This document shows, piece by piece, positions 1,602 through 7,218 of a stretch of DNA of 14,869 bases. The translations under genes and the position numbers were made by a program. The stretch lies in the IMG/VR virus record IMGVR_UViG_2579778929_000006, one strand, 5' to 3'. Within the stretch, counting starts at the first letter, position 1. The number at the start of each line of letters is the position of its first letter. A model generated the notes under the pieces. The model made no database searches. It was not told where the DNA came from and saw only the letters and a list, made by a program, of their open reading frames with translations. This DNA comes from a virus. Lineage: Duplodnaviria; Heunggongvirae; Uroviricota; Caudoviricetes.

Positions 1602-2176
1602 CAAACGATGATTACATCCGCCTGTTATCGGCACTGTTGCCGCCCGGTCCGGCGTGGTCAGCCAGCGATCCGGCGATTGCCGGTGCGGCACCGTCATTAA
1701 CCCGTGTTCATCAGCGTGCGGATGCCCTGATGCGGGAGCTGGATCCGCGCACCACCACTGAACTGATAAACCGCTGGGAGCGTCTGTGCGGTCTGCCGGA
1801 TGAATGTATTCCCGCAGGGACACAGACCCTTCGTCAGCGTCAGCAACGGCTGGATGCGAAGGTTAACCTGGCGGGCAGCATCAACGAGAATTTTTATCTT
1901 GCACAGCTTGCTGCCCTGGGCAGACCAGATGCCAACATCACGCGATACGACAAAAGCACGTTCACCTGCTCATCGGTCTGTACTGACGCGGTGAATGCGC
2001 CGGAATGGCGGTATTACTGGCAGGTCAACATGCCAGCCGCCACAAACACCACCTGGATGACATGTGGCGATCCCTGTGATTCCGCGCTGCGTATCTGGGG
2101 CGACACCGTTGTCGAATGTGTGCTTAACAAACTCTGCCCGTCGCATACCTACGTAATTTTTAAATATCCGGAGTAA
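1592..2176 (+). CDS. Phage tail/baseplate protein (P2 gpI / Mu gp48 / e14 YmfQ type)
   Basis: 194-aa ORF, translationally coupled to the upstream J-type gene and followed 3 bp later by the tail-fibre gene. Position in the J-I-H-G order supports the call; the size matches the e14 YmfQ class from memory. Confidence 0.6.
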
Positions 2177-2179
2177 TCC

Positions 2180-3109
2180 ATGCATCGTATAGACACGAAA
2201 ACCGCGCAGAAGGATAAGTTCGGCGCGGGTAAGAACGGTTTTACCCGTGGTAACCCCCAGACCGGCACACCTGCCACCGATCTGGATGATGACTACTTTG
2301 ACATGTTGCAGGAGGAACTTTGCAGTGTTGTGGAGGCATCCGGTGCCAGCCTGGAGAAGGGGCGGCATGACCAGCTGCTTACAGCGCTTCGTGCGCTGCT
2401 GTTAAGCCGCAAGAATCCGTTTGGCGATATCAAATCGGATGGTACTGTGCAAACGGCTCTCGAAAACCTTGGTTTAGTAAATAACGGCGCAGTCGGTCGT
2501 CTGATTGGCATGCAGATAATCAAGACGTCTGGCACTTACACCAAAACTCCCGGAGCAATGTTCGCGGATGTCATCGCTATTGGGGGCGGTGGGGGCGGCG
2601 GATGGGCAACTTCCACAGCAAACTATAACGCCGCGGGTGGTGGTGGCGGTGGCGGTGGAATGGCACGTGGTCTCTTTAACCTGTCTGCAATATCAACCGT
2701 GCTTGTCACGATTGGTGCGGGTGGTAATGGCGGTATTGCCTCGACGATGACCAATGGCACGCAGGGTGGTACGACGACTTTTGGCTCTTATCTCTCAGCA
2801 AGTGGAGGCCAGCCAGGCAGCGGCTGCACTGCGTCAGGCTCCTCTGCGTCATGTGGCATGGGCGGTCAGGGTGGCACTTCGACCGTGGGTGCCATTTTGT
2901 GCAACGGGTACGCCGGGCTACCCGGTGTGATGGCAACCCCAACAGCAGTCGGAGGGAGTGTAGGTCACGGTCTTGGCGGCGGTAGCTTTATTTCTGGCCC
3001 TGGTGGGTATGGTGCGGGTGGTAATAGCGCGGCAACCGGTGGTGGGATGCAGAATGTCAACGGCAACCCGGGCAATGCTGGCGTGATTATTATTCTGGAG
3101 TACGCGTAA
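2180..3109 (+). CDS. Tail fibre protein with conserved N-terminal baseplate-attachment region and glycine-rich, low-complexity C-terminal region
   Basis: 309-aa ORF. N-terminus [51 protein letters not shown] resembles tail-fibre N-termini. C-terminal two thirds are Gly/Ser/Thr-rich with two poly-Gly runs (GGGGGGG, GGGGGGGG). The stop overlaps the start of the assembly gene. Confidence 0.6.
2457..2484. other. Candidate crossover site for a Din-family DNA invertase (hix/gix/cix/pix-like) inside the tail-fibre gene
   Basis: ctctcGAAAACCttGGTTTagtaaataa carries the palindromic core AAACC-nn-GGTTT. By my recollection it matches hixL (TTCTTGAAAACCAAGGTTTTTGATAA) at about 17 of 26 positions. It sits at the expected constant/variable junction of the fibre gene. 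Confidence 0.4.
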
Positions 3110-3516
3110 TGAATAGCAGATATGCAGTGATTGAAAATGGCACCGTGACCAACATTATCGTGTGGGATGGTGAAACAGTATTCTCCGCAGGAGATAATCA
3201 ACTGTTTATGCCCATTCAGGATAATGCAGGTATTGGCTGGTCATGGTCAGATGATGGCGGTGTATTTATTCCTCCGCCTGCCCCAAAAAAAACACCAGAA
3301 CAACTGGTTGCAGAAGCCAAAGCGGAAAAACAGACCAGACTTGATTTTGCGACCACAAAAATTGTCGTCTGGCAGACAAAGTTGCTGATGGGTCGCAAGC
3401 TCACGGACGAAGAAAGCACACAGCTAAATGCCTGGATGGACTACATCGACGCGGTGACGACAATCGACCCCTCCACCGCGCCGGATGTCATCTGGCCTGA
3501 ACTGCCGGAGGAGTAG
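3109..3516 (+). CDS. Tail fibre assembly protein (Tfa; Mu U / P2 gpG / e14 TfaP type)
   Basis: 135-aa ORF with start overlapping the tail-fibre stop (taATGa). C-terminal …LNAWMDYIDAVTTIDPSTAPDVIWPELPEE is the conserved Tfa C-terminal signature. Confidence 0.65.
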   Translation: MNSRYAVIENGTVTNIIVWDGETVFSAGDNQLFMPIQDNAGIGWSWSDDGGVFIPPPAPKKTPEQLVAEAKAEKQTRLDFATTKIVVWQTKLLMGRKLTDEESTQLNAWMDYIDAVTTIDPSTAPDVIWPELPEE

Positions 3517-3675
3517 GCCATTCAATATCTGGCGCACTGGAGGTATCAACCAGCTCCAGTGCATCCAGATAATCCAGCCACAGATTAAACTGCACTTTTC
3601 ATCATCAGACAATCGTCCAGGCGCGAGCCTGGATGCTGGCATCTCTGCCCAATTTAAATTTGAGAGGTAATTATG

Positions 3676-4227
3676 TTAACAGTTAATCCACCAGTATGTG
3701 CCGGGTGCCTGCGGGTAAGTGGCGGCGGCAACCTCGTGAACCATCCCCCAATCCAGAGCTGTGGAGGCATTGGCTATGGTGGCGGCGGAGATAACCTCCT
3801 TCCACTCATTGCGGCTCTTACTGAGCTCAATCTGACTCTCCAAAATATCGACAAAACGCTCCAGGTCATTATTGAGACACGCGCTCCACTCACTGACGCG
3901 TGAGTGATCCACGCTTGGGCCCATCAAGCCCCAGTGAAAAGGATGCAGTAAGAACCGACTCCCAGGATTCGCCTTACGTTCAGACCCTGCAAGAAAAATG
4001 ATATTAGCGACTGATTCAACATTGCTAAGGTTATGGGTCTTTACTGGGATTGGTAGGGCCTTTAGAAAGTGATAAGCAGTAAAACCTGCAACGAGGTCAC
4101 CGCCCGGACTGGAAATGTAAATGTTTAACTCAGTCGCCCCCTGATTGATAGCTCCAAGGCAATTGCTAATTAAAGCGTTAACGGTGGACTGATTTACGGG
4201 CACCGTGAAATTCATAGTATGCAGCAT
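3676..4227 (-). CDS. ClpP-fold (peptidase S14/S49-like) serine protease homologue, orphan
   Basis: Minus-strand ORF with AGGAGA 5 nt upstream of ATG at 4227-4225 (the track ORF starts one codon earlier at a GTG). NIYISSPGG aligns to the ClpP YINSPGG motif. A Ser lies 28 residues after SPGG in NVESVA, the same spacing as ClpP Ser97, and a His follows 22 residues later in RFLLHP (ClpP His122, spacing 24). The third catalytic residue was not confirmed. Confidence 0.5.
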   Translation of the reverse strand: MLHTMNFTVPVNQSTVNALISNCLGAINQGATELNIYISSPGGDLVAGFTAYHFLKALPIPVKTHNLSNVESVANIIFLAGSERKANPGSRFLLHPFHWGLMGPSVDHSRVSEWSACLNNDLERFVDILESQIELSKSRNEWKEVISAATIANASTALDWGMVHEVAAATYPQAPGTYWWINC

Positions 4228-4294
4228 CACTATCTCCTTGTTTAGTTAGTGGACACATTACCCTGGGAGCAATAAAAAACATAACGCATACTGC

Positions 4295-4740
4295 ATGCTT
4301 AGTTGGTGACCGGCGATCTAAGTTTAGCAAGGATGCATATCTGAAGGCGATACGCTGGTGGTCTGAAAGCGTGACCGCCTCGGTCGCAGCATGCGACATC
4401 TTGTTGGGTTAGTGGAGGAACTGCGGGAGAAAGGTGTTAACTTCCGGAGCCTGACGGATAGCATCGATACGAGTACGCCTATGGGGCGCTTCTTCTTTCA
4501 TGTGATGGGTGCCCTGGCTGAAATGGAGCGAGAGTTTATTGTCGAACGTACTAGGGCGGCTTTGCCGCAGCACGACAAGAAGGGAGGAACGGTGGGCGAA
4601 AGCCAAAGCTGACAGTAGAACAATGGGGGCAGGCTGGCAGGTTGATTGAATCGGGAATATATCAGCAGCAAGTCGCACTGATTTATGATCTGGATATTTC
4701 AACGGTGTATAAAAAATTCCCTGTAGCAAGTAAACCATAG
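4295..4740 (+). pseudogene. DNA invertase (serine recombinase, Pin/Gin/Hin/Cin family), disrupted
   Basis: Translation across frames gives EGDTLVV*KRDRLGRSMRHLVGLVEELREKGVNFRSLTDSIDTSTPMGRFFFHVMGALAEMEREFIVERT…, then after a frameshift RKPKLTVEQWGQAGRLIESGIYQQQVALIYDLDISTVYKKFPVASKP*. This matches invertase sequence from the middle of the catalytic domain through the C-terminal HTH. Defects: in-frame TGA at 4364-4366 where Trp is expected, a frameshift near 4590-4600, and most of the N-terminal catalytic region missing (ATGCTT at 4295 followed by an apparent deletion). Confidence 0.7.
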
Positions 4741-4766
4741 CCTTACGCCACATTGATGATCGCGGA

Positions 4767-5462
4767 TTATGCACTATTTTTAGGTCTTGTAACCCGAGGT
4801 GGGAGTTGTTTGGTTATATGTTCAAGTGATTTTTTGCCCAAGATAGTTCTTTGGACAAAACTTTCTATAGCTTCTAGCATTTGTTCGAACTCACTTTTAT
4901 TCGGGCTCCAACTGCGATGTGCGGCGGCGTTTCCTGCATCAATTACTGAAGATATAACGCATGCCTCAGTGTCGCCTATGACTCCATCTTGTTTTAATTT
5001 TTCAACTTTTTCACCAAGCGGCAAACCGGGGTGAATTTGTAACAGTTCAGCAGTTCGATCAAAAATCGTCCGTAAACCGATGGACGAAAGAATGAAATGG
5101 TCAGAAGTATATGAAGAATACATTTCATTAAATATTTGAAAGAGCTGACGATCAACTGATTCAAGCTTGGATAACCATATCGGAGCTTGAAATGTTTCAG
5201 CGGCAGGATAGGTAGTGATCATATCTATAGGCGTTTCTACAAATTCACCATCACGATATTCGTGGGTAGTATGCTCACTGAAGTGTTCGTTGTGGTGATA
5301 GAAGACAGTATCACAGCCATTGCATTGGAGTAGGTGATGGTAATGGTACCCATAAACTGGATATTGGGAATCCTCCCAGCTAGTGGTTAGCTTCCCATGC
5401 ACAGTGCAGTTACGTAACCCACCGCATGTAGGGCAAAGAGCCTTGAGTATTTCCTTTTTCAT
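4767..5462 (-). CDS. Hypothetical protein: N-terminal zinc ribbon plus C-terminal HEPN-like (DUF4145-type) domain; candidate defence/abortive-infection factor
   Basis: 231-aa ORF. Cys pairs C10-x2-C13 and C47-x2-C50 (CPTCGG…CNGCD) flank a His/Tyr-rich stretch. The C-terminal helical region carries GNAAAH, which I recall as the signature of Pfam DUF4145. GC content is visibly lower than in flanking genes. The RBS is weak. Confidence 0.5.
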   Translation of the reverse strand: MKKEILKALCPTCGGLRNCTVHGKLTTSWEDSQYPVYGYHYHHLLQCNGCDTVFYHHNEHFSEHTTHEYRDGEFVETPIDMITTYPAAETFQAPIWLSKLESVDRQLFQIFNEMYSSYTSDHFILSSIGLRTIFDRTAELLQIHPGLPLGEKVEKLKQDGVIGDTEACVISSVIDAGNAAAHRSWSPNKSEFEQMLEAIESFVQRTILGKKSLEHITKQLPPRVTRPKNSA

Positions 5463-5810
5463 AAAGTCTCTGATTCTATATGTAGGTTAAGACCACTATT
5501 AGCTATACGGACCTAATAATCAATCGTGTGCAGATACAAAAAAGCCCGTATAGCGGGATTTCATGTCACTAAGGGCCGCGGCTACTTTGCGTATCTTTTT
5601 TGTCTTCTCACCGTCTGGCCGGTATTTTGCTGAGACTGCTTATTTCCAGTTTTTACTAGTGCTGTACTGGTACTGCCCAATCATGATTGGTGGGGGACGG
5701 AGTTGAGACTGCAGCCACGTCGTATGCAAGAACGCGCTGCGGTTGGCTGGTGAACTTTCGATAGTGCGAGTATTGAATGATTTCCAGCCGTTACAGATTT
5801 TACGTGTTTA

Positions 5811-6059
5811 TTAGTGAACAAACCACTCGTCAGCAGATTCCCAGGTATCTTTCAGAGTCTCCTGAACAAAAGTTTTTGCAGAATCCTTATCTGCGGTGCG
5901 TGTAACAGAAAGGCCATCATTGCTGGTGGCTTTTACTAACACCTCAACATCGTCATAACGCTTACTGATGCGTCGGGTTAATTCTTCCTTTAACGCATCC
6001 ACAGCACCGGTTGGCATTTTAGTCATTTTTTCTTTGGCTATGCAGATTTCAATACGCAT
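5811..6059 (-). CDS. dinI: DinI-family protein (DNA-damage-inducible protein I homologue)
   Basis: 82-aa [14 protein letters not shown]…[11 protein letters not shown] closely resembles E. coli DinI (MRIEVTIAK…ETWESADDWFV). GGAGGG RBS upstream. Confidence 0.8.
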
Positions 6060-6074
6060 AAAAGTCCCTCCATA

Positions 6075-6090
6075 CTGTGTTTGTATACAG
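6075..6090 (-). promoter_or_regulatory. LexA (SOS) box upstream of the dinI-like gene
   Basis: CTGTgtttgtatACAG is a perfect CTGT-N8-ACAG. The 20-mer 6073-6092 (TACTGTGTTTGTATACAGCA) matches the consensus TACTGTATATATATACAGTA at 16 of 20 positions. It lies 16-31 bp upstream of the dinI-like start codon. Confidence 0.55.
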
Positions 6091-6120
6091 CATTATTTTT
6101 AACTGTATGGATAAACAGTG

Positions 6121-7218
6121 TCAAGAGGTCTTATTTCTGCTCCTTTGGAGCTCTTCAAAACGATTATGTAAAGATTTCGGATACAGTTCGGTATATACCT
6201 GCCATAGCACGTTTAATGAACGATGCCCTGTAACTTGGGCGACTTCCTCAATACTAAAACCAGCCTCAAATAAGCGACTTGCCCCTTCTCTACGCAAATC
6301 ATGGTATCGCAGATCCTTAATACCTAATTTGCTTCTTACTCTCTGAAATCCCGCAGTAACAGAAGTGCTGTTATATGGAAAAATGAATTCCGATTTTTGG
6401 GGCTGTCGTTGGACGATATCCCAGGCTTCCCCAAGCAAGGCTACTTTCATGTGGTTACCTTCCTTTTTGCGTGGATCTTTCCTGTCTCTTACGAGTATAG
6501 ATTTTTGTTCCTGGTCGAGATCTTCCCATCGTAACCGGCATACTTCTCCGATTCGCATACAGGACCATACAGAAAATTTGAGGATATCAACGAACGGAAT
6601 TTTTGAGCATTTATGAGTAGATCGTTGTTGAAGGCCTGCAATGAGCATGTCCAGTTCATCAGATGCTGGTCTACGATTACGACGGTTTGATTTACCAATC
6701 AAACCAAGTTTAAGTAGATATGGGCGAGCGCTTTTCGCCGGGTTTGATGTGTAATTAATTCCGTATACAGGTTTGGCCGCATCCAGAACACTGCCAAGAT
6801 AACTAACATCGTGGCTGACTGTTGCAGGACCTGCACCAGCGTTGTTTCTTAGCCTGCAATGTTCAATTACGTCATTTTCTGTCAGTTCAGATAGTTTGAT
6901 CGCGGAGATGTCACTATCCATAAGCAGTTCCAGCACATATCTTTTAGTACGGCCTGCTTTACCTCCGGCATTTGGGTCATTTAAATATTTGTGTAGTAAG
7001 TCACGGACTGTAAGTCCGTCAACTGCATTTGATGATGGAATGCCATATAGATCTAATTCCATCACTTTCTGTGTGCCCCATGTTTTGGCATGAGCATGTT
7101 TAGGGAATGTTTTGCTTTCCCTGTAAGTGATAACACCTTTTTCTTTGATAATCACATTACAGCGATAGCGTGGTGTGCCATCGGATTTTAGTCGTTTCTC
7201 TATGTTATAGTACGCCAT
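6121..7218 (-). CDS. Tyrosine site-specific integrase, candidate dusA-associated integrase
   Basis: 365-aa ORF with C-terminal …LRYHDLRREGASRLFEAGFSIEEVAQVTGHRSLNVLWQVYTELYP, consistent with the H-x-x-R … Y catalytic signature of tyrosine recombinases. GAGG RBS. Start codon is 89 bp from the divergent dusA start. Confidence 0.85.
   Translation of the reverse strand: MAYYNIEKRLKSDGTPRYRCNVIIKEKGVITYRESKTFPKHAHAKTWGTQKVMELDLYGIPSSNAVDGLTVRDLLHKYLNDPNAGGKAGRTKRYVLELLMDSDISAIKLSELTENDVIEHCRLRNNAGAGPATVSHDVSYLGSVLDAAKPVYGINYTSNPAKSARPYLLKLGLIGKSNRRNRRPASDELDMLIAGLQQRSTHKCSKIPFVDILKFSVWSCMRIGEVCRLRWEDLDQEQKSILVRDRKDPRKKEGNHMKVALLGEAWDIVQRQPQKSEFIFPYNSTSVTAGFQRVRSKLGIKDLRYHDLRREGASRLFEAGFSIEEVAQVTGHRSLNVLWQVYTELYPKSLHNRFEELQRSRNKTS

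Follow-up and report, generated by a model that had tools for sequence, protein, structure and literature searches.

The invertible P segment of the Escherichia coli K-12 cryptic prophage e14 carries two crossover sites, CTCTCGAAAACC TT GGTTTGGGAGAA in stfP and TTCTCCCAAACC AA CGTTTATGAAAA in stfE, which are the published pixL and pixR (PMC3241671). A 2025 study showed experimentally that this 1797-bp segment inverts at the repeats TTGGTTTGGGAGAAGG and CCTTCTCCCAAACCAA, that PinE, PinQ, and PinR each catalyze the inversion in trans, and that deletion of one repeat abolishes it (PMC12529663). The G segment of Mu (gix/Gin) and the C segment of P1 (cix/Cin) are complete and active switches with a constant fiber N terminus, a 26-bp site, a variable tip and its chaperone, an inverted second cassette, a second site, and an invertase. 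In P1, Mu, and Salmonella, a Fis-dependent recombinational enhancer lies within the 5' part of the invertase gene, and Din invertases normally act only when both sites and the enhancer are present, in a defined geometry, on a single supercoiled molecule.

The window analyzed here, a stretch of 14,869 nucleotides from a Caudoviricetes record (IMG/VR IMGVR_UViG_2579778929_000006), is a decaying SfV/e14-like prophage of E. coli integrated at dusA. The region is 99% identical to the dusA-adjacent prophage of E. coli strain CT29, in which the gene order is baseplate genes, ymfQ, fiber, tfa, an opposite-strand tfa' fragment, an opposite-strand ClpP-like gene, a recombinase pseudogene, DUF4145, dinI, and integrase. 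The constant fiber part and ymfQ are 95 to 97% identical to those of phages SfV, SfI, SfII, and SfIV and of e14. At positions 1 to 1131, an IS4-family element, IS421, abuts the prophage; copies of it with 99.7% identity occur in thousands of E. coli records, and its transposase open reading frame (ORF) at 11 to 961 matches DDE_Tnp_1. Homology to CT29 and to L014, an SfV-like prophage of strain TUM14664, begins only at 1132, and the baseplate J gene is truncated near residue 198; in contrast to its CT29 counterpart, the prophage is therefore defective in the genome of the window.

The tail-fiber ORF (2180 to 3109, plus strand) is intact and encodes 309 amino acids, with a constant N-terminal part (2180 to 2468) of the StfP/SfV-orf21 type, ending in ...ALENLG, fused in frame to a variable cassette (2471 to 3109). 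The N-terminal third of the protein matches tail-fiber families, and residues 117 to 299 correspond to the glycine-rich variable domain Gly_rich_2 of Pfam. A tail-fiber assembly (chaperone) gene at 3109 to 3516 on the plus strand (Pfam Caudo_TAP; E = 8e-22) forms part of the same glycine-rich cassette. The RefSeq (PGAP) annotation splits the identical gene of CT29 and TUM14664 into an StfP pseudogene "missing C-terminus" and a separate glycine-rich protein. This split is an annotation artifact arising from the mosaic junction; that the prophage fiber gene is a single intact in-frame gene matters mainly for annotation.

At this junction, positions 2457 to 2484 read ctctcgaaaaccttggtttagtaaataa (28 bases), as had been quoted in an earlier note on this DNA, which placed them correctly at about 95 codons into the fiber gene. 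The candidate crossover site occupies 2457 to 2482 (plus strand) and, as the family consensus has it, is an imperfect 26-bp palindrome, CTCTCGAAAACC TT GGTTTAGTAAAT, in which two 12-bp half-sites flank a 2-bp core. The outer, constant-side half-site (CTCTCGAAAACC) lies at 2457 to 2468, the core dinucleotide TT lies at 2469 and 2470, and the inner, cassette-side half-site (GGTTTAGTAAAT) lies at 2471 to 2482. The site encodes residues A-L-E-N-L-G-L-V-N, and the core TT falls within codon 97 of the uninterrupted 309-codon ORF.

The outer half-site and core, CTCTCGAAAACC TT GGTTT, are identical to those of e14 at 19 of 19 bases (window 2457 to 2475; L004 2779 to 2797), and in both loci ymfQ is followed by an StfP-type constant region, the site has the same position in the fiber gene, and a Din invertase gene lies downstream. 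The two loci differ in the inner half-site (AGTAAAT in the window and GGGAGAA in e14), and the window has a glycine-rich tip as its variable cassette, lacks the right-hand site, and carries an invertase that is 77% identical to that of e14 (DNA, remaining part) and has lost codons 1 to 51. In addition, stfE and the greater part of the opposite-strand assembly gene (tfaE in e14) have given way to a ClpP-like gene in the window, and the prophage is integrated at dusA, whereas e14 is integrated at icd. With the Mu and P1 segments the window shares the half-site consensus and the 2-bp core; whereas those systems are complete, the switch in the window has been reduced to the left site, a single cassette, and two-thirds of its invertase gene.

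The site was scored with two matrices, one built from 10 half-sites read from the Mu, P1, and e14 sequences and the other from 18 half-sites in a published table of Din-family sites (PMC3241671); the e14 half-site homologous to the window was excluded from both. This weight-matrix check, which the earlier note had proposed, set the site apart from the fiber-gene background: the full 26 bp scored 20.4 bits with the 10-half-site matrix and 19.7 bits with the 18-half-site matrix, the top score in the window, against 11.7 and 13.5 bits for the runner-up and a maximum of 9.0 bits in the remainder of the fiber gene. The observed score was matched in 1 of 500 first-order Markov simulations, and 200 shuffles gave a mean best score of 8.9 (standard deviation, 3.1). 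Natural Din-family sites, which belong to the training set of the same matrix, score 17.0 to 31.6 bits on it. The two halves are of unequal strength: the outer half-site is strong (13.7 to 14.2 bits), and the inner half-site is weak (5.5 to 6.8 bits); it ranks among the lowest-scoring natural half-sites, is comparable to the weak halves of natural mix sites, and exceeds the outer half of hixR. Genome comparison, described below, suggests that this weak inner half-site nonetheless took part in inversion.

The homology of the window to e14, SfV, and 12 phage records stops at 2475, and its homology to the glycine-rich cassettes of other prophages starts at 2464 to 2466. The two stretches of homology share the 12-bp core AAACCTTGGTTT, and the breakpoints (2464 to 2475) fall on this core. 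One glycine-rich cassette is joined via the same core to at least three constant regions, namely SfV/e14-like, P2-like H, and others in IMG/VR contigs. When one genome per species was scanned for AAACSTTGGTTTAGTAAAT, 13 matches turned up, none of them in Enterobacteriaceae; since an estimated 9 or so would arise by chance, these matches were taken to be coincidental. As a junction, AAACSTTGGTTTAGTAAAT is rare, observed in some E. coli strains and prophage contigs and nowhere else.

Alignment to intact relatives, the second check that had been proposed, located a crossover site at the homologous position and ancestral-type right-hand sites in two loci, NH-21 and L014. NH-21 shares the left site and the fiber and tfa genes with the window (96.7% identity over window 2001 to 3587); homology ends at 3587, beyond which NH-21 has a complete opposite-strand tfa' and Sv' and then the right site TTCTCCCAAACC AA CGTTTATGAAAA. 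Its invertase has an intact 5' end but is frameshifted and without its C terminus. In L014, the left site is CTCTCGAAAACC TT GCTTTAAGATGA, the right site is ATTTACTAAACC AA CGTTTATGAAAA, a full 184-amino-acid invertase follows the right site, and the glycine-rich cassette faces away from the constant region. When the inner halves of the two L014 sites are swapped across the core, the product is CTCTCGAAAACC TT GGTTTAGTAAAT, exactly the site of the window.

A second comparison captures both orientations of one segment. CT29 also carries a P2-like prophage (L011) with an intact invertase and a matching site, in which positions 4521 to 6758 correspond to L014 positions 6736 to 4499 in reverse (2238 bp; 99.91% identity). 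The block is reversed with respect to the constant region and invertase that flank it, and its ends coincide with the core dinucleotides. A BLAST query with the chimeric junction predicted for the flipped state of L011 in its P2-like prophage found the exact junction in no genome; it brought up L014, in which the L011 segment is flipped within an SfV-like backbone. In another P2-like prophage, L009, the cassette is in the off orientation beside an intact invertase, and inversion would produce an in-frame fusion. The L014 half-site swap, the reversed L011/L014 segment, and the off orientation in L009 argue that segments bounded by this half-site invert in nature. With the 19-base identity to e14, the breakpoints on the core, and the two-site relatives in hand, the earlier reading, which placed a Din-invertase crossover site where the constant and variable parts of the fiber gene meet, is upheld, with its hix/gix-like label refined to pix-type; the sequence comparisons indicate that 2457 to 2482 is by descent a Din-family (Pin/pix-type) crossover site.

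What the segment switches appears to vary among the closest relatives, in which the alternative position holds either a second fiber tip (NH-21) or a non-fiber cargo gene. In relatives with intact invertases, the place of the alternative cassette is taken by a family-9 glycosyltransferase (GT9) or an acyltransferase gene, inside the invertible segment (L011 5568 to 6650, L012 5209 to 6291, L014 4607 to 5689, and L009 2994 to 4139). On translation of the flipped state of L009, the constant fiber part runs into a short out-of-context tail. These cargo-gene switches look like fiber-on/fiber-off rather than fiber A/fiber B devices, so that "fiber switching," as the earlier note put it, fits the arrangement with a second tip in NH-21 and would have to read as fiber-on/fiber-off for the cargo-gene relatives.

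The window itself retains one site. No second matrix hit above chance was found in the window, and the seven short inverted-repeat pairs in 2300 to 4800 do not involve the site, in agreement with the earlier statement that an intact inverted partner is missing. Two stretches had been put forward as degenerate partner remnants, and neither withstood scoring, since the best scores in 4200 to 4345 (-8 to -12 bits) are background. Positions 4232 to 4250 (about -9 bits) are the ribosome-binding leader of the ClpP-like gene, with one mismatch relative to the L010 prophage, and positions 4308 to 4322 (about -12 bits) are invertase coding sequence, corresponding to nucleotides ~125 to 140 of the gene. 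The true right-hand site has instead been lost entirely, together with invertase codons 1 to 51.

The invertase gene survives as a pseudogene at 4337 to 4740 (plus strand), delimited by tblastn with PinE, Gin, and the L009 invertase and covering residues 52 to 184 only. The remnant is 81% identical to PinE residues 52 to 134 (window 4337 to 4585) and, in another frame, 59% identical to residues 125/126 to 184 (about 4555 to 4734); it contains an in-frame stop at 4364 to 4366 and a frameshift near 4555 to 4585, as expected from the earlier description of a broken invertase. Codons 1 to 51 are absent from the window, and the catalytic serine region is therefore gone; in Gin, the catalytic Ser9 is essential (PMC3575834). 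No intact serine invertase with a catalytic serine (Ser9/Ser10) lies adjacent to the site. The P1 enhancer is located at nucleotides 19 to 90 of cin, the remnant in the window starts at about nucleotides 125 to 155, and the homologous stretch is deleted, a position from which loss of the enhancer would follow. A broken local invertase is not sufficient to lock the switch, because PinQ and PinR invert e14 in trans. The switch is locked, as had been proposed, although the cause is to be corrected from the broken invertase to the missing partner site and, probably, the missing enhancer as well. Four full-length copies of the ClpP arrangement (in the complete genomes of CT29, TUM14664, and 102651 and in IMG/VR contig L029) show one orientation only, and the locus in the window would be expected to lack residual activity.

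Between the fiber cassette and the invertase remnant, the window preserves traces of what was lost. A 3' remnant of tfa', an opposite-strand fiber-assembly gene, lies at 3488 to 3624 (minus strand), as identified from the RefSeq annotation of the 99%-identical CT29 locus and from the comparison with NH-21. Since NH-21 keeps a full tfa' and Sv' at the same position, the remnant shows that a second, inverted cassette was formerly present here. Between the tfa' and invertase remnants lies a ClpP-like gene module with its own leader (3640 to 4289, minus strand; coding sequence, 3676 to 4227; 183 amino acids), whose limits are set by 87.7% homology to L010. The protein matches Pfam CLP_protease (E = 5e-13); among solved structures, the nearest relative is PDB 9uxt, "Clp protease" (183 amino acids; E = 5.5e-38), far closer than canonical ClpP (E value of ~1e-9), and no PADLOC model matched. 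The position of the module, with limits set by the L010 homology, shows that it took the place of most of tfa', the alternative cassette, the right-hand site, and the 5' end of the invertase gene.

This arrangement recurs elsewhere. The ClpP block was found in 26 of 5426 complete E. coli genomes, in 25 of which it is at least 99% identical and adjoins a recombinase gene; in all copies inspected (4 loci), this gene is a truncated pseudogene. Its hosts include both SfV-like and P2-like prophages. Window positions 3437 to 4557, equivalent to L003 4001 to 5121 and present also in L006, are 98.8 to 100% identical in SfV-like and P2-like prophages, whereas their flanks differ. The shared block comprises ~150 bp of the tfa 3' end, the tfa' remnant, the ClpP-like gene, and the invertase fragment, and all copies diverge again near invertase nucleotide ~370 (window ~4551 to 4557); both of its flanks are sequences conserved in many Din-type fiber loci. 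Identity of the block despite differing flanks suggests that it has spread via homologous recombination in the conserved sequences on either side, and we tentatively raise the possibility, on balance doubtful, that 3437 to 4557 is a spreading "locking cassette" dropped into unrelated prophages in this way. If so, every insertion would remove the alternative cassette, the right-hand site, and the 5' end of the invertase gene and bring in a predicted ClpP-like protease.

Partnerless sites of this type are common. SfV orf21 has one at its constant/variable junction (CTCTCGAAAACCTTGGTTTGGGAGAA; 29.6 bits), a perfect pix-type site kept without an invertase, with gtr genes after the chaperone gene. 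L010 has a glycine-rich fiber with its own orphan site, followed by the ClpP-like gene, and no invertase. Unlike these two, the window retains an invertase pseudogene and a tfa' remnant, pointing to a recent loss and not a long-standing absence. Since orphan sites also occur in phages without an invertase, such as SfV, the protein motif ALENLGL may contribute as much as recombination to the conservation of the site.

Taken together, these observations make it very probable that the site in the window is the surviving left crossover site of a Pin/Gin-type fiber switch that is now dead and fixed in the fiber-on state. In the ancestral locus, an invertase dimer would have bound the left site together with a second site, inverted and located immediately upstream of the invertase gene, and cleavage and exchange at the central TT/AA dinucleotide would have flipped the segment, either joining the constant N terminus (...ALENLG) in frame to the glycine-rich tip or turning the tip away. 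The window would then be frozen in the fiber-on product, made up of the constant outer half-site, the core TT, and the cassette-borne inner half-site. The replacement by the ClpP-like gene of most of the opposite-strand tfa', the alternative cassette, the right-hand site, and invertase codons 1 to 51 probably came later, and the stop codon and frameshift in the rest of the invertase gene later still. Left with a single site, lacking a local enzyme and probably the enhancer as well, the segment would be unable to invert, and the site would persist now only as coding sequence. The series from NH-21 and L014 (two sites) through L011 (segment flipped) to the window (one site, ClpP replacement) is a natural illustration of the switch working and decaying. 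The system is an ordinary decayed instance of a classical, well-understood switch, a dead Pin-type device without the two repeats needed for the e14-type phase variation reported to block phage T2 (PMC12529663).

A further possibility, compatible with a dead local switch, is that the orphan site still recombines with the sites of other prophages by means of their invertases, which would lead to fiber-cassette exchange between prophages or to large inversions. The joining of one cassette through the same core to several different constant regions is what such exchange would produce, and CT29 and TUM14664 each carry two or three prophages with compatible sites, some with intact invertases. However, homologous recombination in the conserved flanks could yield the same mosaics, and the usual need of Din invertases for both sites and the enhancer on one molecule also speaks against exchange of this kind. 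Moreover, cassette copies within one strain are only ~94 to 95% identical, which argues that no exchange took place recently, and we consider continued recombination between prophages unlikely.

Much less can be said for the idea that the motif is simply a conserved coding motif (...ALENLGL...) with no history of recombination at this locus, its likeness to hix/gix being incidental. The 12-base core AAACCNNGGTTT is indeed not significant by itself (0.58 chance matches expected at one mismatch or fewer), the inner half-site is weak, and SfV and L010 have the same kind of site with no invertase nearby. Against this, an invertase pseudogene and a tfa' remnant lie 1 to 2 kb downstream in canonical positions, the homology breakpoints coincide with the core, the site is the predicted inversion product of the intact relative L014, and a segment ending on the core is found in both orientations at 99.9% identity. 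The L014/L011 comparison largely refutes a purely coding origin, and we regard it as highly improbable.

Least probable of all is that the switch remains active through a degenerate partner (4232 to 4250, 4308 to 4322, or another cryptic site) and an invertase in trans: quasi-sites are known for Cin, and the Pin-family enzymes PinQ, PinR, and PinE act in trans on e14, but the best matrix score in 4200 to 4345 is -8 bits, the first candidate, a ClpP leader conserved in the invertase-less L010, is oriented directly and not inverted, the second belongs to the invertase coding sequence, the region of the invertase gene where P1 has its enhancer is deleted, loss of one repeat stops inversion of e14 (PMC12529663), and all four full-length copies of the arrangement share one orientation.

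In strain TUM14664 (NZ_CP135649.1, 1.984 to 2.017 Mb), a locked ClpP-type locus, L002, and the intact two-site SfV-like locus L014 lie only ~22 kb apart, and a third glycine-rich cassette is present in a P2-like prophage; the strain thus offers a natural setting in which an orphan site could be tested for recombination with active sites. The end of the prophage also varies. Between the invertase remnant and dinI, window positions 4767 to 5462 (minus strand) encode a DUF4145 protein that matches PHROG 1305, "DNA binding protein" (E = 5e-43), and none of the PADLOC models. TUM14664 carries a GIY-YIG (LEM-3-like) gene in place of DUF4145, and this position is therefore a variable accessory slot at the prophage end.
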